Source: an uncultured Thermoanaerobaculia bacterium
GTDB lineage: Bacteria; Acidobacteriota; Thermoanaerobaculia; Multivoradales; J023
Reading direction: 5' to 3'
DNA length: 60,116 bases
NCBI GenBank assembly: GCA_964499975.1
Contig: CAZCOV010000001.1
Span: 1-60,116 of the forward strand
The notes under the pieces were generated by a model. The model was given only the letters and a program-made list of their open reading frames with translations, searched no databases and had not been told where the DNA came from. Positions 3,201 through 53,515 of this stretch are shown here, in pieces (the first letter of the stretch is position 1; every line of letters starts with the position of its first letter). The position numbers and the translations under genes were made by a program.

Positions 3201-6200
3201 TGCGCGAGCATCCCGCCGTCGCCGACTGCGTGGTGCTGGCGCAGCCGCAGACTTCTGGCCAGCGCCTGGTGGCTTACGTGGTCCAGGCAGATGCGCACTT
3301 GCAAGTCGCGGCGCTCGCCGAGCATTTGCGCGCCAAGCTGCCCGCGCACATGGTGCCTGCGGCGTTCGTGGTCCGGACGGCTTTTCCTTTGACCCGAAAC
3401 GGCAAAATCGATCGCAGTGCCCTGCCCGATCCCGACTGGAGCGAAGCGGTTTCCCGGCAGGCTTACAGCGCACCGCGGACCCGCAGCGAAAAGATCTTGT
3501 GCGCGATCTGGTCCGCGGTTTTGCGGGTCGAGCGGGTGGGGATCGACGATCCTTTCTTTGCTTTGGGTGGGGATTCGATCCTCACCCTCGAGGTGGTGAG
3601 CCGCGCCCGGCGCCAAGGCATCGAGCTGTCGCTCCAGGACATCTACCGCGCCCAGACGGTGCGCGCGCTCGCTGCGGCAGCGGCCAGCGAGCCCAGCGCG
3701 GACGGCGTCTTAGGGCAGGCACCTTTCTCCTTGATCACGGCAGCAGACCGCGAACGCCTGCCGCCAAGCGCGGTCGACGCTTACCCGCTGACCAGCTTGC
3801 AAGCGGGCATGCTCTACCACACCGAACACGCCCCCGGCAGCGCGATCTTCCACGATATCTTCAGCTACCACCTGCGCGCTCCCTGGGACGTCTCAGCTTG
3901 GCGCCGCGCCTTGGATGACCTGGCGGCAACCCACGAGATCTTGCGCACCGCCTTTGACTGGACGAGCTACAGCCAACCGCTGCAAATCGTCCACGCTCAG
4001 GCCACCATCCCTTTGACCGTCGAAGATCTTGCGGAGTGGCCCGCAGCCGAGCAGGAAACCGCGATCCGCGAGTGGCTTGAAAACGAGAAGCGGCAAGCCT
4101 TCGACGAGACCCAGGCCGCGTTGCTGCGCGCCCACTTGCAGCGGCGTTCGGTCGACACCTTTCAGCTGACGATCAGCTTTCACCATGCCATTCTCGACGG
4201 CTGGAGCATGGCGACCCTGGCGACCCAGCTGTTCCAGCTCTATCCGTACCACCTGGGGCAAGGTGAAAAGCCCGCAGCGCCTCCGCCAGACACCCGTTTC
4301 TGCGATTTTGTCGCGCTCGAGCGGGCCACCCTGGACGACCCGCGCGCCCGCGACTTCTGGCGGCAAGAGCTCGCTGACCTGCCCGCAACCCGGCTGCCGC
4401 GTCCCCCTGGAGCGCGCGCGACAGACGCCGCTGCCCGCGAAGTGGTGCAACAGCCAGTCAACTTCGACATTGAGCTGTCGCAGCAGTTGCTCGCCTTCGC
4501 GCGGCAAGCCGGGGTGTCGCTCAAATCCGCGCTGCTCGCCGCCCACTTCCGCATCCTCGCCTGGCTCGCGAGCAGCCGCGAGGTGGTGAGCGGCTACACC
4601 TTGCACGGCCGTCCGGAGAGCGAAGGCGCGCGCCAAGTGCTCGGCTTGTTTTTGAACACCGCGCCGCTGCGTTTTCGGTTGCCGTCCGGCTCGTGGCGCG
4701 AGCTGGCGCAGGCGACTTTTGACCAGGAGCGGCGGATCCTGCCTTTCCGGCGCTACCCCATGGCCGAAATGAAGCGTCTGAACCAAGGCCGCGAGCTTTT
4801 TCAAGCCAGTTTCGACTTTGTCCACATGCATGTCTACGAGGAGACCTTTGCGAGCTCGGTGCTTGCGGTGCAAGGCGTCGAGTTTTTCGAAGAGACGGAC
4901 TTCACTTTCCTGGCGCAATTCGCGCTCAATCCCCGAACCTCTGCCCTCGAACTCACCTTGAGCTACGACGCGAGCGCTTTTGCCGCGAGCCAGATCGAAC
5001 GCATCGCCGGCTACTTCAAGCGCGCGTTCACCGCCATGGTTGAGACGCCGCAAGCACCGCACTTCGCAGCGCAGCTCTTGACCGACGCAGAATTGCGCTT
5101 TTTGCGCACCGCCGGTCTTGCGGAAACCCCCAGCGCAGACCCCTGGCCAGAGGATCTCGCGTCGTGGTTTCAAGCGGTTGCAGCCCGTGAGGCAACGCGC
5201 GTTGCGCTGGTCGCCGAGGGTGAAACCTTGACTTACGGTGAACTGGCAGCACGCGTTTTGGACCTCGCTGGGGTGCTGAGCGAGCGCGGGGTCAAGGCCG
5301 AAGAGCGGGTCGCGATCGCCTTGCCGCGCTCCTCCGAACTGGTGATCGCCGTGCTCGCGGTGCTGGCTGCTGGGGGCGTGGTCGTACCCTGCGATCCGGT
5401 CCTGCCCGAGGCGCACCGCCGCGCTTTGCTGACCGTTTTTGCGTCGTCTTTCCTGCTCAGCTCCAGTGCGGTTGCCCCTCTGGCGTTCGGCGGTCCAACC
5501 TTGCTGCTCGACGCCGAGCCCCGCCCGGTTGCCGCCAGCCCGAGACCGCGGCCACCGCGGATTCATCCCACCCAGGCCGCCCTGGTGATCGATCGCACGG
5601 GTGCGCCCGGCGCCCCCCAGGGGTGCGTGCTCGACCATCGCAGCCTGCGTCAACTGCTCGTTTTGGGGCGAGACTGGCTGGGTCTCGCGCGCGAGGACGT
5701 TTCCCTCCTCTTGCATCCCTGCCTGCTGGAGCCTTTCGTGTGGGAGCTCTTTGGCGCGCTCCTCTGGGGCGGACGGTTGGTGGTGGCGCCCGCGTCAGCC
5801 AGCGCGTCAGCGGACGAACTGCTCGCGGTCTTGGCCCGCGAAGAAGTGACGGTCCTGCACCACACCGCCGCCGGCTTTCGCCGCCTGGTCCAGGCGGACG
5901 AGACCTCGCTCGAGATCTTGCGCCTGCGCCTCGTGGTGTGTGGCGGTGACGGGCTCGACGCTGCCAGCCTCGCGTCGTGGTTCGAGCGCCATGCCGTCGA
6001 CGAGCCGCGCTTGCTCCACGTCCCGAGCAGCGCTACGACCACCTTTCACACCACTTCGCGGGTCCTCGACCGTGCACCGGACGCAGCTGACAGCTGGGCG
6101 CAGCCGGTGCCGCGGCTCGGCCTGCGCCTGCTCGACCGCAACTTGCAGCCGGTGCCGATCGGGGTGCCAGGAGAACTTTGGGTCCCGGCGGACGTGGTCG

Positions 6201-8719: not shown

Positions 8720-10753
8720 TTAGGGCGCGGCAGCCGAAGAGCCGTTCGCTTCTGGCACGGCTTGCTGGCGAGCAAAGGCGCGGTTCGCCCGGTAGTCGGT
8801 ATAGTTTTTCTTGGCGTTGGCGTACATCTTGTAGGCGATCGGCAGCAGTCGGGAAAAGGTCTCGATCGGGTTGAAGTTCTGCGGTGAGAAGAGAAAGCGC
8901 GGCTGCGTTTGATCGGACATCAGCGGTGATTGGAGCTCGAAATGGACCTTGTGATGTCCGTAGGAGATGAGCAGCGCGTAGGGAATCCAGCACAGGTTGT
9001 GGGGATCACTGATCTTGAGCCGGGCGGGCGGGAGATCGCGCAGCCTGAGTCCGGGACGGTCGAAATCCTGGAAGTAGGCCACCACGTCGTGGGCTAGGTT
9101 GAGGGTTTTGGGATGCCAGGTCCCCCAGCGCGGCATCAAATGGCGCTGGACCCTAAGCAGGGTGTCAAGGGCGGAATCGCGCGCGATGCCCCAGCGGTCG
9201 CGGAGATAGTCGGCGATTTCGTCATAAACCTTCTTCCACGGCAGAAAAGCCGCACTGGAGCGGTAGAGCACCCGGCCTGATTTGCAGCTTTCGTTGCGCC
9301 CCAGGACGTTCAATACATGACGCACTTGCGCGAGTCCTGGGCGCTCGCTCGCCACATCGTCCATCAGCTGGGCGAGGAAGGCAACTGCCTGAATCTGATG
9401 CTCTTTCTGGAGGAACCGCAGCAGATACGCGAAAACCGAGAATTCGGTCGCGACCAGATAGACCTCGTAAAACTGCTGCATTTTCTGGATGTCGTCGGCC
9501 GATGCGGTTTTGGTCGAGATCACGAAGTTCCAGTCGTCGACGACGATGCCATGCTCTTGCATGTAGTCGCGATGCCCCATTTGCGAGTTGGGCAGCACCA
9601 TGCAGGTGTATGCCTTGGCGTGGACGCGGCGATCAAAGCAAAATTGGAGATCACTTTGAAACGACTCGACCGTCGCGCCAGGAAGCCCGATCAAGAGATC
9701 GGTCGAGACGGTCATGTGTTCCTGCTGAAAGATCGCTAGCAAGTCCTCGTAGCGCTCGGTTTTGATGTTCGAGCGCCTGATCGTGTCCAAGGTGTGGGGA
9801 TCGGTGGTCTGGAGCGCGATGATGCCTTCGGCGGCCAACCCCGCGCGGCTGAAAATGCGGACAATCTCGGTGAGCCGCGGAGTCGCGTTCTTGGCGTAGT
9901 TCGCCACCACTTGCCGGGGATAGCCGTAGCGGGCTTTGGCCGCGGCGATCATTTCCGCCACTTCCACGTCGCGCGCCAGGATGCCGAAATTAGCGTCCGC
10001 CAGCCACAGCACTTCCATGCGTCGGCGCGCTGTCCACTCGATTTCGGCTTGCACCCGGGCCAGGTCGAATTGCCGCACCTTCTGCATGGTCGCAGATCCC
10101 CAATCGCAGAAGGTACAGCTGTAAGGGCAACCGCGGTTGGTCTCGAGGATCGCGGCGATCCAGTCCTGGTTCTGCGCGGTGTCAAAGTAGCCGTTCAGGT
10201 AAGGCGATGGGATGGTGTCGAGGTCAAGCAGCCGTTCGCGTTCCTCGGTCCGAAGAACCTGCGTGCGGTCTTTGGGGTCAGGACAGAAGGTAATGCCGCG
10301 CACGTCTGCGATCGCGGGTCGCCAATCTGTACCGCGCGGGACGCTGGCCAGCTGGTCGAGCAGGTCGGCAAGGGTGACCTCCCCTTCACCGCGCACTGCG
10401 ATGTCGACATGGGGATGCTTGGCCATGAACGCCGCGCAAGCGTAATCATACTTGGGCACACTCGGCCCGCCGTGAACCGTGATGCACTCGGGCACCAGGC
10501 GCTTGACTCCTTCCGAGACCGCCAAAAATCCCTCTGAATTCCACAAATAATGCGAAAAAAGCACGATGCCTGGTCCTGAGCGCTGGATCGCCTGGAGCAG
10601 CGACGTGGTGGTGAAATAAAACGTGGGATCGAACTCATAGCTCTCATTCAAGAGCCCGTTGCGGTACGCCTTGGCGTAGCTCACGACCATGCCCAGCGCC
10701 ATCGGACTGTGATGCGGGCGTTCATAAACGCAGTAGACCGTTTTTTTATTCAT
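8720..10753 (-). CDS. B12-binding domain radical SAM protein (class B rSAM, possible C-methyltransferase)
   Basis: 677-aa ORF. Radical SAM cluster motif TNRGCPYSCTFCDWG (CxxxCxxC) lies after an N-terminal Rossmann-like B12-binding region (PGIVLFSHYLWNSEG...VHGGPSVPKY). The gene is convergent with the A-domain gene. Confidence 0.88.
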   Translation of the reverse strand: MNKKTVYCVYERPHHSPMALGMVVSYAKAYRNGLLNESYEFDPTFYFTTTSLLQAIQRSGPGIVLFSHYLWNSEGFLAVSEGVKRLVPECITVHGGPSVPKYDYACAAFMAKHPHVDIAVRGEGEVTLADLLDQLASVPRGTDWRPAIADVRGITFCPDPKDRTQVLRTEERERLLDLDTIPSPYLNGYFDTAQNQDWIAAILETNRGCPYSCTFCDWGSATMQKVRQFDLARVQAEIEWTARRRMEVLWLADANFGILARDVEVAEMIAAAKARYGYPRQVVANYAKNATPRLTEIVRIFSRAGLAAEGIIALQTTDPHTLDTIRRSNIKTERYEDLLAIFQQEHMTVSTDLLIGLPGATVESFQSDLQFCFDRRVHAKAYTCMVLPNSQMGHRDYMQEHGIVVDDWNFVISTKTASADDIQKMQQFYEVYLVATEFSVFAYLLRFLQKEHQIQAVAFLAQLMDDVASERPGLAQVRHVLNVLGRNESCKSGRVLYRSSAAFLPWKKVYDEIADYLRDRWGIARDSALDTLLRVQRHLMPRWGTWHPKTLNLAHDVVAYFQDFDRPGLRLRDLPPARLKISDPHNLCWIPYALLISYGHHKVHFELQSPLMSDQTQPRFLFSPQNFNPIETFSRLLPIAYKMYANAKKNYTDYRANRAFARQQAVPEANGSSAAAP

Positions 10754-10795
10754 CGCATCCGCGATAATATTGCAGCTGGTTCCAGCGGGTCAATC

Positions 10796-10801
10796 TATAA
10801 T
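10796..10801 (+). promoter_or_regulatory. Candidate -10 hexamer (perfect TATAAT) upstream of the four-helix-bundle/OMT ORF
   Basis: A consensus TATAAT lies in a GC-rich divergent intergenic region, 5 bp before the left nonamer array and 79 bp before GTG 10880. No convincing -35 was seen. Confidence 0.3.
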
Positions 10802-10805
10802 GCGC

Positions 10806-10859
10806 TCCGACAAGTCCGACTCGTCCGACAAGTCAGACATGTCCGACAAGTCAGACTCT
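10806..10859. repeat. Tandem array, 6 x 9 bp (left flank of four-helix-bundle module)
   Basis: Units: TCCGACAAG TCCGACTCG TCCGACAAG TCAGACATG TCCGACAAG TCAGACTCT, contiguous with no spacers. Confidence 0.95.
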
Positions 10860-10879
10860 TCCCCCCAAAAAGGAACCCC

Positions 10880-12523
10880 GTGAGCAAGCCCACTCCCCCG
10901 GAAGACACCCTGCTCTTGCCCCATGGCGGCTACCGCAAGTTGCGGAGTCACAAAGTGGCTTCCGCGGTCTACGATGCCACGGTGGTGTTCTGCCGTCGCT
11001 TCTTGGCGCACGATCGGCGCATGGCTGACCAGATGGTGCAGGCTGCGCGCAGCGGGGTGCGCAACATCAGCGAGGGCAGCGGCGCAGCCGCGACGTCACG
11101 CAAGAGTGAGATGAAGCTGACCAACGTCGGCCGCGCCAGCTTGGCGGACGAGCTGCTGCCAGATTATGAGAGCTTTCTGGTGCAAAACGGCCTGCGCGTT
11201 TGGGCCAAGGAATCGCGGGAAGCCCGCGCGATGCGCGCGCGCCTGCGCCAGGACCGGGATGAGAACCTGCCGCCAGCACCCGCGGGCACCGTGCGCCTGG
11301 AAGGGCTTTCCGGGCTGGCGGATTTTGTCGCGCGGGCTGAGCCCGAGCTGGCCGGCAATGCCATGCTGTGCGCCGTGCATCAGGCGGTTTACCTCTTGAA
11401 CCGCCAGCTCCAGAGCCAGGGGCAGGATTTTTTGGAGAAGGGCGGTTTCACTGAACGGCTTTACCGCGAGCGCAGGGAAAAGAGGAGTCAGACAAGTCCG
11501 ACTGGTCGGACAGGTCAGACACGTCCGACAGGTCCGACTCTCCCATCGCTGATCCACGGCTATATCAACACTCAGCTGCTTTATGTGGCGGCCAGGCTCG
11601 GCATCGCTGACCTCTTGCGCGATGGCCCCCAAAGCCGCGAGGCGCTGGCCTGCGCTACCGGGATCGCGGCGCAGGCACTGGAGCGTTTTCTCCTCGGGCT
11701 GGTCACTTGCGGCGTGCTCGAACTGACCGCTGACGAACGCTTTGCCTTGACCCCGGCAGGGATGCTGCTCGCGGCGGATCATCCACAGTCCCTGCGCGGG
11801 CAAGCGCTGCTCGCCGGAGAGCTGTTTTATCCTGCTTGGGGACAGCTGCAAGAGAGCCTTCAACAGGGTGGCACCGGGGTCGAAAAAGCGTTCGGTCGCC
11901 CGCTGTTCGAGCACCTGGCACACCAGCCCGAGGTCGGCACGCGGTTCAACGCCTTCATGGCCGACCTCACCGCGCGCACCGCGGAAGCGCTCCTCGGCGT
12001 CTATGATTTTTCGTCTGCCAAACGCCTCGTCGACGTCGGGGGGGGGCAGGGGACCCTGCTCGCCGCGATCTTGCACGCGCATCCAGGGCTGGTCGGCGAA
12101 GTCTTTGACGCGCCTGCGGTCGCCGCCGAAGCGCGAGCGCAGATTGCTGCTGCCGGACTCACTGCGCGCTGCCAGGTGCAGAGCGGCGATTTTTTCACGG
12201 CAGTTCCCCCTGGGGCTGATACGTATCTGCTCTCCCAAGTGCTCCACGACTGGGACGATGAGCGGTCGATCCTCATCCTCGAGAACTGCCGTCGGGCGGT
12301 TGCTGCGGACGGCAGGGTCTTGGTGCTCGAACGCTTGGTGCCCGAAAAAGCCGCACAGCGCCTTGAAGTGGTGATCATGGACCTGATGATGCTGACCCTG
12401 ACCGGGGGACATGAACGCACGGCTGCGGATTACGCGCGGCTGCTGGCGGCAGCAGGGTTTGAACTGCAGCGCATCATCCCCCTGCCTTCGGGCAGCGCTT
12501 TGCTCGAGGCGGTGGCGCTTTGA
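10880..12523 (+). CDS. In-frame fusion ORF: four-helix-bundle protein (23S rRNA IVS / Avd-like family, with suffix domain) + class I SAM-dependent O-methyltransferase
   Basis: GTG 10880 is preceded by AAAAAGGAA (AGGA 10871-10874, 5-nt spacer). The N-terminal ~200 aa are HGGYRKLRSHKVASAVYDATVVFCRRFL...DQMVQAARSGVRNISEGSGAAATSRKSEMKLTNVGRASLADELLPDYESFL...EKGGFTERLYRERREKR. A repeat-encoded linker SQTSPTGRTGQTRPTGPT follows. The OMT then begins at ~11545: LIHGYINTQLLYVAARLGIADLL (dimerisation helix), LVDVGGGQGTLL (SAM motif), VLHDWDDE. The track ORF start at 10709 was rejected because it overlaps the rSAM start on the other strand. Confidence 0.75.
   Translation: MSKPTPPEDTLLLPHGGYRKLRSHKVASAVYDATVVFCRRFLAHDRRMADQMVQAARSGVRNISEGSGAAATSRKSEMKLTNVGRASLADELLPDYESFLVQNGLRVWAKESREARAMRARLRQDRDENLPPAPAGTVRLEGLSGLADFVARAEPELAGNAMLCAVHQAVYLLNRQLQSQGQDFLEKGGFTERLYRERREKRSQTSPTGRTGQTRPTGPTLPSLIHGYINTQLLYVAARLGIADLLRDGPQSREALACATGIAAQALERFLLGLVTCGVLELTADERFALTPAGMLLAADHPQSLRGQALLAGELFYPAWGQLQESLQQGGTGVEKAFGRPLFEHLAHQPEVGTRFNAFMADLTARTAEALLGVYDFSSAKRLVDVGGGQGTLLAAILHAHPGLVGEVFDAPAVAAEARAQIAAAGLTARCQVQSGDFFTAVPPGADTYLLSQVLHDWDDERSILILENCRRAVAADGRVLVLERLVPEKAAQRLEVVIMDLMMLTLTGGHERTAADYARLLAAAGFELQRIIPLPSGSALLEAVAL
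11488..11541. repeat. Tandem array, 6 x 9 bp (right flank of four-helix-bundle module, translated as linker)
   Basis: Units: TCAGACAAG TCCGACTGG TCGGACAGG TCAGACACG TCCGACAGG TCCGACTCT. Same unit family, orientation and number as 10806-10859, offset by 682 bp. Confidence 0.95.
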
Positions 12524-13713
12524 GCGATGCCCGAGCGGTGTTGCTCCCAGACCCCCGCTCGCCTGCGGTGCGGGCGGATCCCTATCCGGTTTACGCTGCC
12601 CTGCGCGCTGCTGCGCCGCTTTACTTCGACGCAGCCGGCCGCACCTGGTATGTCACGGGCTACGAACCCTGCCGCGCGCTGTTGCGCGATCGCCGCGTGG
12701 TCAACGTCGACACCGCGACTTGGCCGGACGATCCGGCGCCGCTCGCCGGTCTCAAGAAAAAATGGCTGCTCTTTCTCAATCCCCCGGACCATACCCGGGT
12801 GCGCAAACTGGTCCAGAGTGTGTTGACTCCGCAACGGGTGGCAGACCTGCAGCCCACGGTTGAGCGTCTCACTGACCAGTTGCTCGCGCGGGTTGAACCT
12901 GCCAAGTCGATGGACGTGATGGCGGATCTCGCGTACCCGCTGCCGGTTGCGCTGATCGCCGAGATCATGGGAGTACCTGCGGCGGATCGGCAGCGCTTCC
13001 GGCAGTGGGCCGATGCGCTCGCCGGGGTCCTCGATGTGGTGGTCGATGCCGCGCGCCTGAACCGCGCGCTGGACGCGGCCGTTGCGTTCTCACAGTACCT
13101 TGAAGACCTCTTCGCGGACCGCCGGGATGAGCCCCGAGACGATCTCCTGACCCACCTGGTCCAGGCCGCAGAAAACGGTGAGTTGAGCCAGGTCGAGCTG
13201 TGCGCCACCTGCATCTTTCTCTTGATCGCGGGTTTCGAAACCACGGCCAACTTGATCGGCAATGGCCTGCTGGCCTTGCTGCGGGCGCCCGGCGAGCTGC
13301 GCAAGTTGCAGGACGATCCCGCCCTGATCGACAGCGCGGTGGATGAGCTGCTGCGCTTTGATGCGCCGGTCCAGCTCGCGCTCCGCACGGTGCGCGAGGA
13401 AATCGAGCACCCAGCAGGCACGATCCACCCTGGGGAGATGATCTATTTCTTCCTCGGTGCCGCCAACCGCGATCCCGCCTACTTCAGCGCACCCGACGTC
13501 CTGGACATCACCCGAAACGAGGCTCCCCACCTGACCTTCGGCGCTGGCATCCACTACTGCCTCGGCGCTCCCCTAGCCCGGCTCGAAGGGCAAGTCGCGA
13601 TCCGCCAGCTGCTCGCCCGGACGTCCAAGCTGCGGCTTGAACTGGCAGCGCCGCGGTTTCGCGAACATTTCTTGCTGCGCGGCCTCGAAACCCTGCCCAT
13701 CTCCTGGCAATGA
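12520..13713 (+). CDS. Cytochrome P450
   Basis: 397 aa. The TTG start overlaps the OMT stop (TTGA). I-helix LIAGFETT, ExxR (DELLRFD) and heme loop FGAGIHYCLGAPLA are present. Confidence 0.9.
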   Translation: MSDARAVLLPDPRSPAVRADPYPVYAALRAAAPLYFDAAGRTWYVTGYEPCRALLRDRRVVNVDTATWPDDPAPLAGLKKKWLLFLNPPDHTRVRKLVQSVLTPQRVADLQPTVERLTDQLLARVEPAKSMDVMADLAYPLPVALIAEIMGVPAADRQRFRQWADALAGVLDVVVDAARLNRALDAAVAFSQYLEDLFADRRDEPRDDLLTHLVQAAENGELSQVELCATCIFLLIAGFETTANLIGNGLLALLRAPGELRKLQDDPALIDSAVDELLRFDAPVQLALRTVREEIEHPAGTIHPGEMIYFFLGAANRDPAYFSAPDVLDITRNEAPHLTFGAGIHYCLGAPLARLEGQVAIRQLLARTSKLRLELAAPRFREHFLLRGLETLPISWQ

Positions 13714-17041: not shown

Positions 17042-20000
17042 TCAAGAAACTCCGATTTCGATCGCGTCAAGTTTCTGCCGGAGCCGCAGCTCCAGTTCAC
17101 TGTCGGGAATCTCTTCTTCCGCGGGCCACGACGCGTCCGCGGTCACGGCTGGCGGTCGCTCCTCCGCAACGGGTTCGCCGCTCGTTGTGTTCGCCACAGT
17201 CGCGAGCAGGTGCCGCGTCAGGGATGCAACCGTCGGATAGTCAAAAATCAAATTCGCGGTGAGCGCGCAGCCGAGGCTGAGCTGCAGCTGATTGCGCAGC
17301 TCGAGCGCCAGCAACGAGTCCATACCGAGCTCGAAGAAGGTCTGGTTGGGAGCCAGGGTGTAAGCCGGACCGAGCGCGAGGACCCGCACGACCTGCTGCT
17401 GGATCTCGGCGGCCAGACGCTTCTCGATCTCGCGCGGCGCTGCCCCGGCCAAGGTCTCCAAGAGCCCAGATCCTGCGGCAGGGCCTGTGGCAGGGCCTGC
17501 GGGTCCAGCACCTGAAAGTCCAGGGCCAGCCGCGGCCTGGGCGCTGTCCGCGCGGTTCAGCCGGGCGAAGAGGGGCAAACGGTTGAGCGGGGTCGCGGCA
17601 GCGAGAAAACGCCGCCAGTCGACCCGGATGACGCTGGCTTGGGGAGGATCCTGCCGCAGCAGTTGCTGGAAGATCCCCAAGGCCTGCTCGATCTCAAGCC
17701 CCTCGACTCCCAGGTCAAGCCAGCGGCGGCGGTCGCTCTCGCCCAACGCTTGGACCATGGCAGAGCCCGCCCAAGGCCCCCACTGGAGGGTCTGCCCCGC
17801 CAGACCATGGGCGCGGCGGTGCAGCATCAGCGCGTCCATGAAGGCATTGGCCGCGGCATAGCTGCCCTGACCCGCCGCCCCGACCAGGGCTGCCAGCGAC
17901 GAGAAAGCCACGAAGAAATCGAGCGTCAGCCCCTGGGACGCGCGGTGCAGATTCCACGTGCCGTCGACTTTGGGCGCGAGCACCGGGCGGAAGCGTTCCC
18001 CGGTCTGGTGACGCAGGATGCCGTCGTCGAGCACGCCAGCGGCATGGACGATGCCGCGGAGCGGCGGCAGGGCAGCAGCGATTTCGGCAAAGAGCGCACT
18101 GACTTCCTGCGCCTGGGTGACGTCGACCGCACGCAGGTGGACGTCGACTCGCCCGGCGCGCAGTTCCGCCAAAAACGCGGCGTTCGCCTCGTCCGCTGCG
18201 CGGCGGCCAACCAGCACGAGGTGGGCAGCACCCGCGGCCACCAGGGAACGCGCGACTGCACGGCCGAGCGACCCCAAACCGCCGGTGATGAGGTAGGTGC
18301 CAGCCGAGTCGATCGTGAGCTGGCGCTCGGTGGTCCGGGTCAGCGGTGCGAGGCGGGCCACGTAGCGATTTCCGCGGCGCAACACCACCCGATTTTCCGC
18401 GCTGGCGCCCAGCAGCTCGCTGGCCAGGGCGGGGACGGGATCGGCATCGTCGAGATCGATGAGGGTGCAGGCCAGCGCTGGATGTTCGAGTGCCACGGTC
18501 GCTCCCAGCCCCCACAGCGAGGCTTGCAGGACGCCCGCGAACGACGAACTGTCGCCCGCGGCACGCACGCCCGGGGCACGCTCGCCCGGGGCACGCTCGC
18601 CCGGGGCACGCTCGCCCGCGGCCCGTCCGAACTCGGGCCCAGCAGCACCAGCTGTCACCAGATAGAGCCGAGGTAATTTCTCTGAAGCCGCTTCCGTCAG
18701 GGCTTGAATCAGGTGGAGCGCGCCGCCGCACACCTCTTCGACCGCGGCCATGGGAGTGTCGTCGGGATTGCGGCTGACGGCGTCGAGGCCCGCGAGGTAG
18801 ACCACTGCGGTCGTGCCCTGACCGGAGGAAGCTGCGGCGAGCGCTTCTCCCCCATCGCCGGGCGCAACCAGCACGGTGCGCTGTCCGCGGGCGCGGAGCG
18901 TCGCGTCCAGGCGCTCACCGATTCCCCCGCGGTCGCTAAAGATCAGCCATTGACGCGCTGGGTCGCCAGCCTCCGGGTCGCCGGCCGCCACCGGGTTGGT
19001 GGGCAAAGGCTGGTCCTGCCAGAGCAGCTCGTAGCAGTCGGCGAGCCGCTCTGCGGCCAGCGCACTCTCGACGGTCGCGCGGCTGGCGCGGCGCACCGCG
19101 AAGCCCTGGATCTCGACCACGGCGTGCCCTGCTGGGTCGAAGATCGACAGGTCCGCCCTGCGGGTCGCATCGTCTGCGTGGTCCTGGCGCAGGCGGGCAT
19201 GGCACCACAGGGAGGAGGCCCCGTCAGGTCGGCGGAACAGGTGACAGCGTTCGAGGTGGAAAGGCAGGAAGGTTTCGTTGCCCTCGCCCGCGACCACGGC
19301 CGCGATCGGCTGGAAGAAACTGTCGACTAGGCCCGGATGGAGCGGATCGCGACCCCAGTCCACACCCGCTGGCGCGGCCAAACGGCACAGGGCTTCGCCC
19401 TCGCCTTGGTACAGCTCGGTCAGCCAGCGGTAGGTCGTCCCCAACTCGATGCGCCGCGCCGCCAGGCTGGCGTAGAGGGTTTCGACCGCCGCCGGACGAC
19501 AGCGCGCGCGGAGGGTCGCCAGCGCGACCTGGGCCGGCGGCTCGGCCGGCGCGTTCCGCGCGATCGTCGCGCTCGCGGTCACCCCCCAAGCGTCGCCCGC
19601 GGATCCTGCTGCGGCGACGACGATCAGCTGGGCTACGGCGCGCCCGTCGTCTTGGGGGGAAATCACCAGCTGCAGCTGGGTGCCACCCTCTTCCGGCACC
19701 ACCAAGGCGCGCGGAAAAACCACATCCTCGACGGCGCAGCCAGCGCCGCCGAACGTGTCGAGCACGGCTTCGAGGATCATCCCAAGGCGGGTCGGCCCTG
19801 ACACCACCATGTGGCCGTACACCCGATGGTCGCGCAGGAGCGGCTGCACGTCTGCGTCAAGCTCTGACGCGAAAAGCGTCTCGCGGATGAGGGGAGAATG
19901 CACTTTGCGGCCGAGCAGGGAGTGATTGCCGCGCGAGCGTGGGTCGCGACGGGGGTCGGCGGATGCGGTCGAGCGCGGCAGCGCCGAGCGCGGCAACGCG

Positions 20001-22750: not shown

Positions 22751-25700
22751 CAGCTAGCCTCCCCAGCCCACAGCTTGTCCTTGCTGTATTTGCTGTATGT
22801 GCTGTATTTGCTGTATTTAGCAGCAATGATCGCCGCCGCTGCGGAATCGGTCAGCGCTGCAGCCGCAAGGCGGGCCGGGGGCACGGTTTGCGCAACGGCT
22901 GGCACCAGCAGCGGCGACGGCAGGGGCAAGTGGGTCGACGGGGTCAGGGCCAGGGATGCCAGGGTCGGCGCCGCACCCGGTGGCGCAGCAGCTGGCGCTG
23001 AGGGAAAAAGCTTCTCGTCCAGGTAACGAGCCAGGGTTTCGGCGGTCGGATAGTTGAAGATGACGGTGGGCGAGAACTCCCGATCCAAGCTGCGCTGCAA
23101 GCGATTCTTGAGTTCGATCGCCATCAAGGAGTCCATGCCCAGCTCGGCGAAACCGCGGTCCTTGTCGGGCAGCCGCCCGGTCTCGTAACCGAGTGCCCGC
23201 GCCACTTCCTGCCGCACCCAGGTGACCAGCTGCGCGGGTCGGGCGGCAGGGGTCAGCGCGGCCAGCTCGCGAAAAGTTTGCCCGACGCTCGCGCCGGGGT
23301 TGGGGTCGCCCCCCAGCTGACGCAACAACTCCGCGACGATCGGCGAGTCACCGGCAATCTCACGAAAAGCCGCGGGCTCAATCGGCAGCACCCCGACCTG
23401 GGCGCGTCCGCGGTCGCCCAACAGCCGTTCGAGGACCTGCAGTCCCTGGGCCGGAGAAAGCGCGGTCAAGCCACTGGCGCGCTCGGGAGAGCGCGCGGTC
23501 AAGCCACTGGCGCGCTCGTTCCCCTGGTCATGCGCCATCCCGACCGTGCTCCACGGACCCCAATTCAGACTCAAGGCGGGCAGCCCCTGCTGGCGACGGC
23601 AATGGGCCAGGGCATCGAGGAAAGCATTGGCCGTCGCGTAATTGCTTTGGCCGCGCGAGCCGAGGAGGGACGCGGCCGACGAGAAGAGTACGAAGAAATC
23701 GAGCTCGAGATCGCGGGTCTTCTGGTCGAGGTGGAAAGCGCCTTCTACCTTGGGCGCCATCACACGGGCGAAGCGCTGCCAGTTCTGTTGCAAGAGAACC
23801 CCGTCGTCGAGCACGCCAGCGGCGTGGATCACCCCGCGCAACTGCGGCAGCGAAGCCATGGCAGCGAACAGGCGGTCGATGTCGGCAGCGTTCGCCACAT
23901 CGGCTTTTTCGACCAAGACCCGCACTCCCTGCGTTTCGAGCTGACGCACCGCGGCCTGGGCGGCTGGGCTTGCCGCACCGCTGCGGCCGGTCAAGACCAG
24001 ATGGCGCGCGCCGCGCGCTGCCAGCCATCTGGCCAGTTCGAGCCCCAAGCCGCCGAGTCCACCGGTGATCAGATAACTCGCCGTTTGGGACAGGACGAAC
24101 TCACGGCGCGGTGGCGCTGCGGCGAGGGTCAGCCGCGCCACGTGGTTCCGGCCGCCGCGCACCGCCAGATGCGGTTCGCTCTGCGGGTCGAGGATCACTT
24201 GCAGGATCTGCTCGGCCGCCGGATGACCCGCAGGCTCGAGGTCGAGCAGACCGCCCCACAACTCAGGATGCTCGAGCGCGATCGAGCGGCCAAGCCCCCA
24301 CAGGGGCGCTTGCGCCAGCGCGAGGCGCTCCGGCTGGTCGCTCACCGCCACCCCCTGCCGGGTGACCAGCCACAGCTTCGCGCTTTCCTGTTGCTGGCTC
24401 GCGACCAGGGCTTGCAGCAAATGGAGCACCCCACCGCAGAGCCGCGCGTGCTCCGCGCGGAGCTGGGCCAGGGCGGTCGGCGCGTCCACCGCAGCCGGCT
24501 CCTGGGCGTCGAGGCTCCAGAGGAAGACCGCACCGGCGAGCGTTTCCGGGTTTGCGGCGAAGATTGCGCGGAGCTGCTCCCCCGCGTCCGCAGCGCCGGG
24601 GTCGATGGCGCCGTCGACCGCGAGGGGTTCCCCGCCCGAACGGGAGGCGTCTTGGATCAGGACGCTGTGACGTTGCCTCGCGGCGAGCTGGCGTGCGAGT
24701 TCCTTGCCCGTCCCGCCGTGGTCGGCAAAGATCAGCCACCAGCCCGGACGCTCCCCGCCGTGGTCATGGCGGGCAGCCGCGACCGCCGGCTGCCAGCGCA
24801 GCTCATACAGCCACTCGTCGAGGGCTCTTGCCGTGTGCTCGTGCTCGAGCTGCCGCACCAGCTCGCTGACCACCCGTGACAACGACGCCGCTTCTTGGTC
24901 CGCGAATTCGCCGGCCCGGCGCAGGCGTTCGACCACGGCAGGCGTGTCGCCCTGGGCCAAGAGCTGCTGCAGCTCACCTCCCGCGCGAAACCGACGACCC
25001 TGGCCTTGGTCTGTCGCCGTCACCCAATGACGCCGCCGCTCAAAGGGATAGGTCGGCAGCTCCACGTTGCGCCGCCCATCGCCGTCGAGCTGCCGCCACT
25101 CCGGGGTGCCACCCAAGGCGTAAAACCGACCGAGGCCGAGCAACATCTGCTCCTCCTCAGCCCGCTGCTCGGTCAAAGACGGGATCAGCTCGCGGCTCAG
25201 CTCGCTCTGCGGCAAGAGGCCGCCGACCAAGCCGAGAAGGACCGGGCGCGGCCCCACTTCGAGCAGGGCGTCGCAACCCGCCGCGGCCAGGGCTCGGACC
25301 CCGTCGACAAAACGAACCGTCTGCCGCACGTGGTCCACCCAGTACTGCGGCGTCGCGATCTCGTCGCCCGCCAGCCGGCCACTCAGGTTGGAAATCAAGG
25401 GGAGTGTCGGCTTGGCGAAGCGGACCTGGGCAGCGCAACGGGCAAAAGCGTCTAGCATGGGCTCCATCAAGGGCGAGTGAAAGGCATGGGAAACCACCAG
25501 ACGCCGACGGCGGATTTGGGGGTCCAAGCGCGCGATCACCTCTTGGGCGGCGACGCTATCCCCCGAAATCACGACGCTGTGCGGACCGTTCACTGCCGCA
25601 ATCGCCAACTGGTCGCGCCTTGCCGCGAGCAACTCGGCCGCCGCGGGCTCGGCGATTTCGAGGGCCCACATCTCGCCCGGAGAAGTCAGCTCGGCCATCA

Positions 25701-27922: not shown

Positions 27923-27986
27923 TTTGTCCGTCTTTTGTTTTGTCCGTCTTTTGTTTTGTCCGCTTTTTGTTTTGTCCGCTTTTTGT
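27923..27986. repeat. AT-rich tandem array, 4 x 16 bp in the divergent PKS / exporter intergenic region
   Basis: TTTGTCCGTCTTTTGT x2, then TTTGTCCGCTTTTTGT x2, contiguous. The array is 167-230 nt upstream of the PKS start. Confidence 0.95.
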
Positions 27987-28108
27987 GTCTACTCTTTTGC
28001 TTTTCAATCAAAAATCTCGCAAATTGCAAACTGCCGGGCGCGGCGCGCAAACCGCCGCCTTGGATTCTTCCGATTCTTCCGCATCCGCTCGCACCGCTGC
28101 TCTTCCTG

Positions 28109-28117
28109 TGATAGAAT
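28109..28117 (+). promoter_or_regulatory. Candidate extended -10 element (TGaTAGAAT) for the DUF697/exporter operon
   Basis: A TGnTAnAAT-like sequence sits in the intergenic region about 224 nt upstream of ATG 28341. No -35 was seen, so this is speculative. Confidence 0.25.
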
Positions 28118-28340
28118 CTTTTCTTGATCCGCTCCTAGTTGATCGGGCGAGAGCTGAGAAAAGAGCTGAGAAGAATGCTGAAGAACGCCCCAACTTCAGT
28201 CTAGAATGGATCCGGGTCTGGGTGCTGTCGGAAACGACTACGCCAACGCCTTCGCGAGGCCAACCCACTAGGGTGGGAGTCTCGCTTCAAGCAGCAGTGG
28301 ATAACCAGCAGTTTCGCAGAATCCTTAGAGGAGTAGCAGA

Positions 28341-42064: not shown

Positions 42065-44587
42065 TCACTGCCTGTGGCTGCCGCGACCCAGGGCTTGGCG
42101 GGCAGCTACGGTGCGGGGATCTTGGTCGCCGAAAGCGTTTTGATAAATCGCGAGGGCGCGTTCGAACTCGCTCGCGGCTGCAGCGGACTGGCCGAGAACC
42201 GCAAGCGAGGAGCCCAGACCGAGCAGGGCGTCGGCGATTTCGGGGTGGCGCGGGGAGAGCTTGGCGGACAAGGCGTCAAGCGCCTGACGAAAAGCCACTG
42301 CGGCTTCTGCGGGGTTGCCGCGGGCAGCAAGGAGGGACGCGAGGTGGGTGCGGGTGACCGCAGTGCTGCGGTGTTCGGAACCGAGCAGGCGCTCGAACAA
42401 GGCGAGCGCCTCGCGCAACATGGGCTCGGCAGCGACAAGGTCGCCCTGGGCGAACAGGGCTTGCCCCAACGCGTCGAGATCCTGAGCGACATCGCGGTGA
42501 GCATTGCCATGGGCACGGCGGTGGAGCTCGAGCGCTTGGCGAGCATAAAGCTCAGCGCCAGCTGGATTGCCGCGCAGGCGTTCGAGCTCGGAGAACTGGC
42601 GCAAGCCGACCCCAACCGAGGGATGGCGGGCGCCGAGCAGCTGACGCCGGATCTCCTGGGCTTGCTGCAACACGGTGGCAGCGGCGTCGAGCTGACCGCG
42701 CTCTAAGAGCAGGTCGCCCAGGGTGCCCAAACCGACCGCGATGTCGCGGTGCTGCTCGCTCGGGTGGATCTGGCGGTCGATGTCCAGGGCTTGCCGGAGC
42801 AGAGCTTCGGCTTCGTCATAATCCCCCTGGACCTCGAGCACCTTGGCCAGGTTGTGCAGGCTCCCCGTGACTTTGGAGTGGGCAGTACCGAACAGCCGCT
42901 GGCGCATGGCCAAGGCTTGCCGGTAGAGCTGTTCCGCGCCGATATAGTTGCCGCGATCGCGCAAGGTTCCGGCCAGATCGTTCATCGTCTGGGCGACCTC
43001 GCCGTGGTCGCCCGGCCAGAGCTTTTGGTGCAGCTTGAGGGAGGCTTCGAGCAACGGCTGAGCCCGATCCAAAGCGCCCAGCCGCCAGTAGATCTTGCCG
43101 ATCACGTGGAGCATTTCCGCGCGGACTTCGGGCTGCTCGCTCAGCTGGTCGTCGATCCGCCGCGCGCCGCGTTCGAGGAGCTCGCGCGCAGTGATCTCGC
43201 CGCCCATGGCCTGGTCGGGATCCGCGGATTCGAAAAGGTCGAGCAAAAAGCCCTTGACCTGTTCGGCCTTGGCCGCTTCGGCACGAGCCAGGTCGCGCTG
43301 GGCGCGGATCTCCTGGCTCTGGAGCGTCACCGTGGCAGCGTAGCCGACGAGCAAGAGGGTAAACCCGACTGCCGACGCCACTCCCAGCCGATGGCGTTCG
43401 ACAAACTTGCGGACGCGGTAACCCAGACTGTCGGCTCGCGCCAGCACTGGCCGACCCGACAAGAAGCGCTCGACGTCCTCGGCCAGTTGCTCGACTGAGG
43501 GATAACGGCTCTCCGGCTCTTTGCGCAGGGCCTTGAGGATGATCGCGTCGAGATCGCCGCGCAGCTGGCGGCGCAACCGCTTGGGCGTGGTGCGACGGGC
43601 GGCACTCCAGGCTGCGAGGGCTTCCGCGGGTGATCCTTCAGCCGGTCGGAACACCACCGTGCTGGGACGTTGCGGTTCCTGTTCGCAAATCGCGCGCGCC
43701 ACTTCGATCAGGCTCCGCTCTTTCACCGAGTAGGGCCGCTGTCCGGTCACCAGTTCAAAGAGCAGGAGGCCGAGCTGGTACTGGTCGCTGGCAGTGGTCA
43801 GCGGCCGGTCCAGGACCTGCTCCGGGCTGGCATATTCCGGGGTCATCCACGAAGACCCGGTCCGGGTCAACGGCGCGGAGAAGCGCGATTCCGCTTGGAG
43901 CAACTTGGCGATCCCGAAATCCAGCAATTTGACCTGGCCGTCCCCGGTGACGAAGATGTTGGCCGGCTTCAAGTCGCGATGCACCAGCAAGTTGCGGTGG
44001 GCGTAGTGGACCGCTTGGCCGACTACCACGAACAAGCGCAGGCGTGCCTCGACGCTCAGCTGGTGCTGGTCGCAGTAGGAGTCGATCGGCAGGCCGTCGA
44101 CATATTCCATGGCGAAGTAGGGTTGATCGCCTGCGGTGAGCCCGCCGTCGAACAGGCGGGCGATATGCGGATGGTTGAGCGAGGCCACGATCTGCCGTTC
44201 CTGGTGGAAGCGGCGGATCACTTCCTCCGTGGCCTTGCCCGGACGGAGCAGTTTGAGCGCGACCTGCTGCTCGAAGTGCTCGTCAGCGCGTTCGGCCAGA
44301 TAGACCTCTGCCATGCCGCCAGCGCCGAGCGGACGGACGATGCGGTAGGGTCCGATCCGTTCGCCCGGCTGCGCCGCTTCGTTGTCCAGCCACTCGGCCG
44401 CCATCGCCGCAAACAGGGGTCCTTGGAATGCCCCACCCGGCTGGAGAAAGGGGTCGCTGGGATCCATCTCCGACCAGTTCTGCGTGGTCTCAAGTTCGAG
44501 ATCGTGGGGAGCGCGCGCTGACTTGCTGGCCCGGGAGAGCGGGACCCGGGCGTCAGATTCCTGAGAGCGCTCTTCCGCTGGCGGCAT
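42065..44587 (-). CDS. Ser/Thr protein kinase with transmembrane segment and C-terminal TPR array
   Basis: 840 aa. Kinase motifs LGAGGMAEVYLA, VALKLL, HRDLKPANIF and LLDFGIAK. A TM segment (VASAVGFTLLLVGYAATV) is followed by multiple TPRs (NLAKVLEVQGDYDEAEALLRQAL etc.). Confidence 0.9.
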   Translation of the reverse strand: MPPAEERSQESDARVPLSRASKSARAPHDLELETTQNWSEMDPSDPFLQPGGAFQGPLFAAMAAEWLDNEAAQPGERIGPYRIVRPLGAGGMAEVYLAERADEHFEQQVALKLLRPGKATEEVIRRFHQERQIVASLNHPHIARLFDGGLTAGDQPYFAMEYVDGLPIDSYCDQHQLSVEARLRLFVVVGQAVHYAHRNLLVHRDLKPANIFVTGDGQVKLLDFGIAKLLQAESRFSAPLTRTGSSWMTPEYASPEQVLDRPLTTASDQYQLGLLLFELVTGQRPYSVKERSLIEVARAICEQEPQRPSTVVFRPAEGSPAEALAAWSAARRTTPKRLRRQLRGDLDAIILKALRKEPESRYPSVEQLAEDVERFLSGRPVLARADSLGYRVRKFVERHRLGVASAVGFTLLLVGYAATVTLQSQEIRAQRDLARAEAAKAEQVKGFLLDLFESADPDQAMGGEITARELLERGARRIDDQLSEQPEVRAEMLHVIGKIYWRLGALDRAQPLLEASLKLHQKLWPGDHGEVAQTMNDLAGTLRDRGNYIGAEQLYRQALAMRQRLFGTAHSKVTGSLHNLAKVLEVQGDYDEAEALLRQALDIDRQIHPSEQHRDIAVGLGTLGDLLLERGQLDAAATVLQQAQEIRRQLLGARHPSVGVGLRQFSELERLRGNPAGAELYARQALELHRRAHGNAHRDVAQDLDALGQALFAQGDLVAAEPMLREALALFERLLGSEHRSTAVTRTHLASLLAARGNPAEAAVAFRQALDALSAKLSPRHPEIADALLGLGSSLAVLGQSAAAASEFERALAIYQNAFGDQDPRTVAARQALGRGSHRQ

Positions 44588-44623
44588 GGTCTCTCTAACG
44601 CTAAAAGCCAGCCAAGCCGCCCA

Positions 44624-45967: not shown

Positions 45968-45996
45968 GTTTTTCCTTTGCGCAGGTTCGCCGTTAG

Positions 45997-46040
45997 CATG
46001 GTTTTTCCTGGGTCAACCAACATGGTTTTCCTGGGTCAAC
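45997..46040. repeat. Tandem duplication (~21 bp x2, 3-nt spacer) at the TPR-gene stop / DUF4388 leader
   Basis: CATGGTTTTTCCTGGGTCAAC caa CATGGTTTTCCTGGGTCAAC. A third partial copy, CATGTTTTTCCT (45965-45976), contains the DUF4388 start codon and RBS (minus strand AGGAAAAACATG). Confidence 0.85.
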
Positions 46041-47856: not shown

Positions 47857-47863
47857 GTTCAGT

Positions 47864-48367: not shown

Positions 48368-48512
48368 TCATCTCAGATCGGGTTCGATAGGATCCGGGGG
48401 CCGGAGAACCTCGTTCATGATTTCCCTACCGCACAAGGCTCAAATCTTCAAGGGGCGGGCCAAGACCGACCAGCCATTTCGCGGCTCAGGGCGTCGGTTG
48501 CATTCTAACTCG

Positions 48513-48561
48513 GAATCTCCAAACCATGAATCGCAAGACCGTGAATCTCCATCCCATGAAT
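48513..48561. repeat. 30-bp-period tandem repeat over the mazG 5' end
   Basis: GAATCTCCAAACCATGAAT (48513-48531) and GAATCTCCATCCCATGAAT (48543-48561). A third CCATGAG lies at 48584. The in-frame ATGs at 48526, 48556 and 48586 are exactly 30 nt apart. Confidence 0.85.
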
Positions 48562-49488: not shown

Positions 49489-49540
49489 CGCTCGTTGGGT
49501 CCCTGAACCCCTTAGCCGTTTGCCTCGGGGCAAGACCCTT

Positions 49541-50293: not shown

Positions 50294-50478
50294 GGCCTTA
50301 TTGTAGTTGGAGTTGGTGGCAACCCAGCTGACCCTGAGGACCCTGAGGCGTCCCATCAGCGCGCACGTCCCGCCCATTTTCCATATTTGCCGCGTTTGCC
50401 GCCCAGCGGGCGACCCCTGCGGACGAGACTTGTGGGGGAGTGCTTGCGCGGTTACCGGAGGTACTTTAGCAGATACTT

Positions 50479-53472: not shown

Positions 53473-53515
53473 CCGGGGTGCTGGTTACCAGCTGCTCGCG
53501 GCACCGCCACCGCCT

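Follow-up and report, generated by a model that had tools for sequence, protein, structure and literature searches.

A widespread four-helix-bundle gene unit flanked by nonamer arrays and its apparent frameshift fusion to an O-methyltransferase in a Thermoanaerobaculia bacterium

How does the gene for a tailoring enzyme come to lack a start codon of its own and to be read as the second half of a protein whose first half is an unrelated helical bundle? This question is raised by a 60,116-bp contig of an uncultured Thermoanaerobaculia bacterium (CAZCOV010000001.1; the whole contig is called the window below, and all coordinates refer to its forward strand). Here a gene for a four-helix-bundle protein, akin to the proteins of 23S rRNA intervening sequences (IVS) and to Avd, runs without a stop codon into a gene for an O-methyltransferase (OMT), and arrays of 9-bp units (nonamers) lie on both sides of the bundle gene. 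A first-pass annotation had read this arrangement as a repeat-delimited cassette captured in frame at the 5ʹ end of a tailoring gene, with the arrays as special boundaries of the capture. Our analyses indicate that the arrays are ordinary flanks of this gene family, that the unit of array, gene and array stands in place of the 5ʹ end of the OMT gene, and that the continuous frame is attributable to the loss of one nucleotide ahead of the second array. We hold the descriptive part of this account with high confidence. The account as a whole, which adds insertion ahead of the OMT gene and a role for the arrays as putative cis-acting sites, we consider on balance probable.

The features on which the argument rests are the following.

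10806–10859: 5ʹ array, six units of the form TCNGAC-NNG (core GTCNGAC), TCCGACAAG TCCGACTCG TCCGACAAG TCAGACATG TCCGACAAG TCAGACTCT
10800–10883, plus strand: possible leader open reading frame (ORF) that reads the 5ʹ array in the Ser-Asp-X frame (MRSDKSDSSDKSDMSDKSDSSPQKGTP); its TGA (10881–10883) overlaps the GTG start of the module (GTGA)
10860–10879, plus strand: spacer with a weak ribosome-binding site, AAGGA (10871–10875); relatives carry a GGAGG-like sequence at the same position
10880–11485, plus strand: four-helix-bundle and suffix module, 202 aa, of S23p/IVS type, with helices 3 and 4 separated by an insert; the suffix occupies 11342–11485
11486–11487, plus strand: remnant 'AG' of the pre-array codon, the putative site of a 1-nt deletion (frameshift)
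11488–11541: 3ʹ array, six units, TCAGACAAG TCCGACTGG TCGGACAGG TCAGACACG TCCGACAGG TCCGACTCT
11542–12523, plus strand: OMT body without its own start; dimerisation domain ~11543–11776, Methyltransf_2 domain ~11837–12463; the stop codon overlaps the start of a cytochrome P450 gene
11608–11610, plus strand: TGA that would end a four-helix-bundle ORF of 243 aa if the deleted base were restored (a reconstruction)
10880–12523, plus strand: chimeric ORF of 547 aa, comprising four-helix bundle, frame-shifted array linker and OMT

Both six-unit arrays had been placed and transcribed correctly at the outset, and both are reported by Tandem Repeats Finder with a period of 9 (5.7 and 5.8 copies). When the pattern TCNGAC-N3-TCNGAC-N3-TCNGAC is sought with at most one mismatch, they are the only sites in the 60 kb, yielding 16 overlapping matches where shuffled sequences lead one to expect 0.02. 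Compared in register, the arrays share 86% identity, with differences at 8 of 54 positions. Because these differences exist and both arrays are expected of the family, we reject the idea that an assembly error duplicated one array. The starts of the arrays do lie 682 bp apart, as annotated, but the 'direct orientation' ascribed to them is nearly uninformative: the core GTCNGAC is its own reverse complement, and the arrays (78% complementary over 45 nt) are therefore direct and inverted repeats at once.

Bracketing by such arrays is the norm of the gene family, in at least eight phyla, rather than a scar of an event in the window. We collected 72 loci from contigs representing one genome per species (L-numbers denote retrieved loci and P-numbers proteins; all relatives are metagenome-assembled fragments, read with short flanks). 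Array counts for a close set of 49 loci used a strict criterion of at least three exact units. By this measure, a 5ʹ array ending ~10–65 nt before the start codon is present in 30 of the 49 loci and at least one array lies on the 3ʹ side in 33; 23 loci carry arrays on both sides and 40 carry at least one. The array-bearing loci come from metagenome-assembled genomes of Acidobacteriota, Planctomycetota, Verrucomicrobiota, Sumerlaeota, Kiritimatiellia, Lentisphaerae, Hydrogenedentes and Myxococcales, and the number of units ranges from 3 to 11. Other four-helix-bundle paralogs are thus bracketed by arrays, as the first-pass annotation had proposed checking, and for the same reason its view of the arrays as special capture boundaries does not hold.

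The relatives also reveal what the array after the suffix normally does. The nonamer read as TCN-GAC-NNG specifies Ser-Asp-X, and this array ordinarily encodes an acidic (Ser-Asp-X)n tail; the right array of the window accordingly corresponds to the normal tail of the family. The proteins are built from the helical bundle with its suffix followed by a Ser-Asp-X run, and long forms continue with a topoisomerase-type C4 zinc finger (PF01396, CPxCGxPM…FWGCSxYPxC) and a second Ser-Asp-X run. At the DNA level, long forms therefore read array, bundle, array, zinc finger, array.

In the window, a single open frame extends from GTG 10880 to the stop codon at 12521–12523, and the database's own gene call for the contig is the same 547-aa protein (P0121). 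The reported absence of a stop codon from the module and its in-frame fusion are thus real features of the sequence, but a deletion, and not the design of a cassette, seems to have caused them. In a codon-wise alignment of nine relatives, exactly 16 codons separate the conserved GGFTE from the first 3ʹ array in seven; in L003 and L005 the array begins later and is still in the Ser-Asp-X frame. In the window, 15 codons plus 2 nt separate GGFTE from the array (AGG AG|TCAGAC). Relatives read the suffix-proximal array in the Ser-Asp-X frame without exception (21 of 21), and only the window has it in frame 2. Its native reading would be SDK SDW SDR SDT SDR SDS; the actual reading is QTSPTGRTGQTRPTGPT. 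Restoring one base produces the tail …EKRxSDKSDWSDRSDTSDRSDS… with a stop codon at 11608–11610, which may be compared with …EKRRSDKSDRSD… of L020. For a repeat of the form (GTCNGACNN)n, one of the three frames (CNG-ACN-NGT) can never hold a stop codon. The missing stop is thus best explained by a 1-nt deletion before the 3ʹ array that shifts reading into this stop-proof frame, which is also the frame of the OMT. The resulting junction peptide is …REKRSQTSPTGR….

The OMT itself, a class I S-adenosylmethionine-dependent enzyme, retains both of its domains intact and above cut-off (PF00891, 176.8 bits, 5e-52; PF08100, 39.4 bits, 5e-10). Between 11486 and GTG 11584 there is no in-frame ATG, GTG or TTG, and GTG 11584 lies inside the first conserved OMT helix. 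The lack of an independent start noted earlier is consequently upheld, and the first ~22 residues found in orthologues are missing as well. Among 1365 OMT homologues, the only long form carrying the helical domain is the window protein, and the others are stand-alone proteins of ~340 aa. The closest orthologues, P0122 and P0123, are 78% identical, have 346 aa, and begin M(S/T)(N/D)DHET…LARIAPMIHGYINAQL; at their loci there are no arrays upstream, and they possess ~22 N-terminal residues more than the window OMT. Downstream of the orthologous OMT gene (L073:3729–4382) lies a P450 gene whose product is 82% identical to the window P450, with the same 4-nt overlap. Homology of the window OMT begins at …LPS-LIHGYINTQL, nine bases past the last array unit. 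On this evidence, the unit takes the place of the 5ʹ untranslated region, ribosome-binding site, start codon and ~20 codons of the OMT gene. The DNA upstream of the OMT orthologues, where other genes reside, has no convincing homology to the window, and a check for an empty site with a single array found none. The proposal of a cassette captured in frame at the 5ʹ end of a tailoring gene is therefore sustained only in part: the unit does stand where the OMT's 5ʹ end would be, but its arrays are not specific to capture and its frame derives from the deletion.

Since no in-frame start precedes GTG 11584, the chimera would be the only evident way to translate the OMT. Compared with its orthologue, the OMT displays dN/dS (nonsynonymous to synonymous divergence) of 0.15/1.29, its S-adenosylmethionine-binding and catalytic motifs are visible, and its frame is open over 327 codons; both halves of the chimera look intact. 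Because stand-alone orthologues with 78% identity exist, OMTs of this type do not generally carry the N-terminal domain; had they done so without flanking arrays, the first-pass annotation would have taken it for an old domain fusion. The 547-aa chimera is unique to the window contig, and the fusion is probably a lineage-specific accident with a clear molecular cause.

If the arrays are a family trait, it becomes important to establish whether selection sees them as peptide or as nucleic acid. Codon usage favours the latter. Serine is encoded by AGY in 65% of cases in the gene bodies and in 0 of 124 in the Ser-Asp-X tails of the same genes, and GAT serves for 41% of aspartates in gene bodies versus 2 of 124 in the tails. 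The X codon of the tails ends in G in 89 of 93 cases, compared with 37% of third positions in the gene body, and the centre base of the unit, a Ser wobble position, is free. The non-coding 5ʹ arrays have the same character, with G at the ninth position of 114 of 124 units (92%) and a near-uniform centre base, and in 4 of 31 of them a stop codon (TAG or TAA) interrupts the Ser-Asp-X frame. In two short forms, L003 (~3610–3672) and L005 (~3601–3636), the gene's own stop codon (TAA/TAG) is one of the 'X' triplets and the array runs on past it. Peptide-level selection on the Ser-Asp-X tail is rejected by these codon statistics. An unconstrained leader would have lost the motif, because synonymous sites of the adjacent gene are saturated. 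Thus, in coding and non-coding arrays alike, constraint acts on a nucleotide motif (GTCNGAC with a 9-bp period) and not on the peptide.

The array motif also co-varies with the protein clade. We distinguished a close clade, at least 64% identical to the window module (n = 51), from a distant clade with 41–56% identity (n = 12). GTCNGAC arrays accompany the gene at 41 of 51 close loci and at none of the 12 distant loci, whereas GATCNG arrays are found at none of the close loci and at 10 of the 12 distant ones. In the distant clade (L052–L069), 9-bp arrays of GATCNG-NCN, a motif that contains a Dam-type GATC site, flank the gene on both sides and are also found within the helix 3–4 loop (for example, L056 at 2929–2973 and 3597–3623, and L057 at 2785–2820). 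In L197 and L251, which make up a third group, this helix 3–4 loop contains a GTCNGAC array.

Arrays of this kind also occur away from the gene. A search for the exact four-unit pattern returned 86 viral stretches and at least 120 metagenomic stretches; a family member stands next to the array in none of the 86 viral stretches and in 10 of 120 among the metagenomic matches listed. Nevertheless, the few hundred bases around the gene have ~40 times the array density of the remaining 3-kb flanks. The earlier worry that the arrays are microsatellites unrelated to family genes is thus justified in that they are common elsewhere, but it fails to account for this density. When ORFs around 157 heterogeneous arrays were clustered, the four-helix-bundle family was the only one that recurred across independent contigs (10 loci); no second gene family was bracketed recurrently by these arrays, and the other clusters consisted of five overlapping viral contigs. 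Heterogeneous arrays are found in intergenic DNA, at gene ends and within long frames. Examples of in-frame Ser-Asp-X arrays are those inside a type IA DNA topoisomerase (L234, 3767–3802 and 4409–4444) and in the helicase region of a type I restriction HsdR (L035, 4845–4889), and in such conserved enzymes the arrays seem to behave like frame-neutral insertions. Many of the viral pattern matches (L080, L084, L098, L139, L157 and others) are homogeneous collagen-like Gly-Pro-Thr (GPT) repeats in long ORFs, which represent an unrelated route to the same nucleotide pattern.

Several lines of evidence identify the protein encoded between the arrays. Residues 1–202 match TIGR04258 (4helix_suffix) with 64.2 bits against a cut-off of 40, and residues 155–202 cover positions 1–48 of the 49 in this profile. 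Matches to TIGR02436 (23.5 bits, cut-off 24) and PF05635 (18.8 bits, cut-off 33.8) fall below threshold and are partial, covering helices 1–3 only. An AlphaFold2 model built from 33 sequences (mean pLDDT 87.6) has long helices at residues 22–41, 46–69, 74–102 and 155–187, a terminal helix at 190–201, and an insert of ~50 residues between the third and fourth helices. Foldseek comparison of this model with the Protein Data Bank (PDB) ranked 2gsc_D (Xcc0516) first, with a probability of 1.00 and a TM score of 0.87 normalised to the target, followed by 2rld_E (BT_0352, 'S23 ribosomal protein family') with a TM score of 0.77; the E-values are weak (0.1–1). 2GSC is a representative PF05635 structure and is homologous to the diversity-generating retroelement (DGR) protein Avd (PMC10053308). 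A sequence search of the PDB with a family profile gave no match, the anti-phage defence models of PADLOC had none for the module or for two long-form relatives, and PHROGs yielded no significant match. The description of the module as a complete four-helix-bundle protein of the IVS/S23p family with its suffix is therefore supported. It is best viewed as a divergent subfamily of PF05635/TIGR02436, a member by predicted fold and not by the cut-offs of the profile models.

The subfamily is extremely conserved, with at least 75% identity across phyla and a dN/dS of ~0.07. More than 7700 homologues of the module are present in the protein collection, the best 120 of which are 75–88% identical and come from several phyla, and the module retains every position that is invariant in 32 homologues. 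Relative to L001, its dN/dS is 0.094/1.44; across relatives, dN is 0.09–0.13 and dS is 1.0–1.4, which is saturated. Because synonymous sites are saturated, high protein identity between copies cannot by itself be taken as a sign of recent transfer. Bacteria contain an abundance of stand-alone four-helix-bundle proteins akin to Avd and to the ORFs of 23S rRNA intervening sequences, and to our knowledge no function has been assigned to them to date.

The genomic settings of the unit are diverse, with 80 Pfam families among 77 neighbours. Type I restriction-modification genes are somewhat enriched, and the unit lies between hsdS and hsdR in both L006 and L035. In 9 of the 31 loci with a 5ʹ array, including the window (10800–10883), L002, L009, L028, L032 and L035, the Ser-Asp-X frame through that array closes at a TGA that shares bases with the start codon (ATGA/GTGA). 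For at least three of these loci, this frame belongs to the preceding gene, whose 3ʹ end it forms (hsdS at L032 and L035, and a glycosyltransferase gene at L009). This arrangement suggests that the unit is often expressed through translational coupling inside host operons.

We propose the following explanation for the locus. The segment from ~10802 to 11541 would be one copy of a widespread unit composed of a nonamer array, a TIGR04258 gene and a second nonamer array, which arrived by insertion or recombination ahead of an OMT–P450 operon. The OMT would now be made only as a fusion, with transcription from a residual intergenic promoter, and the frameshift was perhaps retained because it restored OMT translation. 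The arrays would be cis-acting nucleic-acid sites for the unit's own basic helix-bundle (plus zinc-finger) protein and might serve autoregulation, maintenance and spread of the unit, or both. Their 9-bp period would render them harmless to reading frames inside genes. Together with the stop-proof frame, it would let them settle in leaders, linkers and surface loops and could allow them to splice neighbouring frames. A cognate relationship of this type would account both for the different motif fixed on either side of the gene in the other clade and for the crowding of arrays at the gene. We advance the assignment of the arrays as cognate cis-sites tentatively, as a proposal that may well prove wrong. 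A further step is more speculative still, namely a two-part system of arrays and four-helix-bundle-suffix (plus zinc-finger) protein, in which the protein would recognise the arrays of its own clade as DNA or RNA and would maintain or spread them.

A number of observations weigh against this explanation. Among the metagenomic matches listed, ~90% of arrays of at least four units have no adjacent family gene, and arrays thus do not need the gene in cis. Short forms of the protein end in or just after the first Ser-Asp-X run and lack the zinc finger. The 5ʹ and 3ʹ arrays of one unit are only slightly more alike at variable positions than arrays of different units (mean identity 0.48 versus 0.43, p ~0.007). 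The databases hold no syntenic radical SAM–OMT locus, so the upstream junction of the inserted segment cannot be mapped. Finally, the 1-nt deletion might be an assembly or sequencing error, given that the window consists of one metagenomic contig and lacks a second copy for comparison.

These observations bear differently on the other explanations that can be entertained. Suppose first that the arrays were the ends at which a mobile cassette recombines, in the manner of terminal repeats or of an extended target duplication; excision and integration would then proceed between arrays, and solitary arrays would be footprints or landing sites. Such a cassette would account for the frequency of solitary arrays, for the variety of neighbourhoods, for an inserted segment bounded by the outer edges of the arrays, and for a zinc finger whose presence or absence corresponds exactly to an array-to-array segment. 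It would also accommodate the slight excess similarity of arrays within a unit. However, flanking arrays are never near-identical, and that small difference lends weak support to the notion that they are recent copies of each other; the 'twin' arrays of the first-pass annotation are better described as independent runs of one motif. Moreover, no recombinase, transposase or integrase was detected by Pfam among the large ORFs of the window or recurring beside arrays, the unit occupies the same position in related genomes (L014/L017/L018 and L036/L039/L042), synonymous sites between copies are saturated, and the empty site expected from such movement was not encountered. We consider a mobile cassette possible but rather doubtful. 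It is unlikely that the arrays are functionless, slippage-prone 9-bp microsatellites derived from a low-complexity Ser-Asp-X tail that hitch-hike with the gene, the fusion being a neutral accident. The frame-preserving period, the variable number of units, and the similar arrays in many unrelated ORFs and in the GPT repeats of viral proteins are all compatible with this idea, but it leaves without explanation the motif kept in non-coding 5ʹ arrays beside a gene with saturated synonymous sites, the avoidance of AGY and GAT codons in the tails, the passage of arrays through stop codons and the different motif fixed at both gene ends in the distant clade.

Two further readings concern the transcript and the contig itself. 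The arrays might act as RNA, pairing with each other or folding on themselves to yield a processed or protected transcript, much as RNase III excises 23S rRNA intervening sequences in which genes of this protein family reside. Pairing had been raised as a possibility by the first-pass annotation and is physically feasible, given the self-complementary core, a predicted duplex of −46.6 kcal/mol between the two window arrays, and single-array folding energies of −15.7 and −20.4 kcal/mol (shuffled sequences: −8.3 and −13.1); units also often sit inside operons, with stop/start overlaps with their neighbours, where transcript processing would be useful. Specificity is what fails, because pairing is no stronger between the arrays of one unit than across units (p = 0.84), the helices are broken every 3–4 bp and the centre bases do not co-vary. 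In addition, there is no Rfam match and the unit lies outside any rRNA gene, and we judge an RNA role to be quite improbable. It is also not likely that the fusion is an artefact in which a G at 11486–11487 was lost in assembly, so that the real gene would end at TGA 11608–11610 and the OMT would be a 5ʹ-truncated pseudogene or use an unusual start. The single metagenomic contig and the match between the restored tail and relatives such as L020 speak for an artefact, but the site is a run of only two bases instead of a long homopolymer, the OMT frame stays open and well conserved across its 327 codons, and without the shift the OMT would have no route to translation. Least credible of all is an old functional fusion in which the four-helix bundle is a regular N-terminal domain of the OMT lineage. 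The open frame and the intact look of both parts agree with it; however, the domain occurs in only 1 of the 1365 OMT homologues, which is the window's own, and the junction is a frame-shifted array. The lengths of OMT homologues and the N-termini of the orthologues lead us to reject it.

The remaining features near the unit are listed below and bear on how the chimera might be transcribed.

8720–10753, minus strand: gene for a B12-binding radical SAM protein (PF04055 and PF02310), divergent from the unit
10754–10805: residual divergent promoter region, with TATAAT at 10796–10801 (plus strand) and a sigma-70-like TTGACC-18-TATTAT at 10793..10764 (minus strand), from the sequence and a promoter scan
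12520–13713, plus strand: cytochrome P450 gene (PF00067), syntenic with the P450 gene behind the orthologous stand-alone OMT

A TATAAT hexamer is indeed present immediately 5ʹ of the left array, as annotated. On the plus strand, however, the promoter scan found no −35 partner for it; only the minus-strand site is supported, and its location supports assignment to the radical SAM gene. No equivalent box is apparent upstream of the arrays of relatives. A role for the plus-strand TATAAT as the unit's own promoter is thus unsupported, and we take this stretch to be residual host intergenic DNA that lies outside the unit.

The surroundings form a nonribosomal peptide synthetase–polyketide synthase (NRPS-PKS) cluster whose tailoring genes, as judged by Pfam, encode the radical SAM protein, the OMT, two P450s, a cupin protein, an epimerase and a glycosyltransferase. 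The closest homologue of the radical SAM protein anywhere is 54% identical and belongs to a different cluster, and the third-best OMT homologue is 51% identical, which indicates that the source organism has no close relative in the collections. Other repeats occur in the window. A 16-bp unit, TTTGTCCGTCTTTTGT, is present in four tandem copies at 27923–27983, ~170 bp upstream of the start of a minus-strand PKS operon (27756), and may be a regulatory site of the cluster; more short repeats follow at 28063–28181. A 15-bp tandem repeat (4.7 copies) lies within the first PKS gene at 18552–18622, and a 9-bp repeat, TTGCTGTAT (4.2 copies), is located at the junction of two PKS genes (22781–22818). 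The far end of the window (42065–56152) encodes a Ser/Thr kinase–TPR protein, a DUF4388 protein and a cNMP–PilZ protein.

If the two-part system proposed above is correct, it would provide a first function for stand-alone IVS/Avd-like helical-bundle proteins. The co-occurrence of array and protein makes the hypothesis of a cognate pair concrete, and it points to a class of repeats that we have not found described. The locus also carries a caution for the annotation of gene clusters, in that an NRPS-PKS tailoring enzyme without its own start is encoded only as a chimera with an unrelated domain, and a chimeric OMT could alter or abolish methylation of the product.

It is instructive to compare this arrangement with known systems. 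A literature search found no paper on TIGR04258, on repeats linked to PF05635, on GTCNGAC arrays or on such Ser-Asp-X strings, in agreement with the first-pass annotation, which was aware of no description of nonamer-array boundaries. The association of an extremely conserved IVS/Avd-like protein with palindromic nonamer arrays that differ between clades therefore appears to be undescribed. The nearest relatives of the protein are members of PF05635, TIGR02436 and TIGR04258 (2GSC, 2RLD), which have the same fold, and some copies of the family studied here reside in type I restriction-modification operons, as do many of these members. The window module differs from PF05635 and TIGR02436 by its ~50-residue insert, its sub-cut-off scores and the nonamer arrays around or inside the gene. 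Membership in a 23S rRNA intervening sequence is rejected, because the window contains no rRNA or other Rfam family and the neighbours of the gene on either side code for proteins.

Avd, which is basic, binds both nucleic acid and the reverse transcriptase of its retroelement. It was not among the top Foldseek matches of the module model. The two are nevertheless distant homologues within one helical-bundle superfamily (PMC10053308). As the first-pass annotation had stated, the window holds no parts of a DGR: Pfam detects no reverse transcriptase among the large ORFs of the 60 kb, there is no template/variable repeat pair, and the only long direct repeats are paralogous NRPS/PKS modules.

Repeat systems with a dedicated gene offer closer parallels in organisation. 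In REP/REPIN systems, short palindromic repeats typically lie on either side of a low-copy RAYT gene and occur in larger numbers across the rest of the genome, and the nonamer arrays are similarly concentrated at their gene (~40 times denser) even though most lie elsewhere. However, RAYTs are HUH tyrosine transposases, whereas no catalytic domain is recognisable in the helical-bundle protein of the window, and REPs are extragenic hairpins, whereas the present arrays are 9-bp tandem repeats that are often translated. Pfam and NCBIfam return only helical-bundle, suffix and (in relatives) zinc-finger matches and no HUH (Y1) transposase, which excludes membership in this group. Rickettsia palindromic elements are single elements of 100–150 bp with no associated gene; they resemble the nonamer arrays in that repeats are tolerated within the ORFs of conserved enzymes (here the type IA topoisomerase of L234 and the HsdR of L035) and differ in that the latter are tandem nonamers. 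A small promoter-less gene between imperfectly palindromic sites that is expressed from outside recalls an integron cassette, but this identity is rejected, because no integrase was found by Pfam among the large ORFs of the window or recurring by arrays, there is no attC site or cassette array, and the neighbourhoods are scattered.

Together with REPIN–RAYT pairs, operators and iterons supply the nearest analogies to the proposed function of the arrays. The met-boxes of MetJ, the heptads of the omega repressor and the iterons of ParR/parC are short, partly palindromic tandem units that are bound by the product of the adjacent gene. The binders in those systems are ribbon-helix-helix proteins, whereas the nonamer arrays extend into and beyond coding sequence and the binding of a protein to them is only putative. 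Like operators and iterons, however, the nonamer arrays consist of 3–11 partly palindromic units with a fixed period at the gene, and their motif changes with the protein clade, which is what a cognate pair of protein and site would show.

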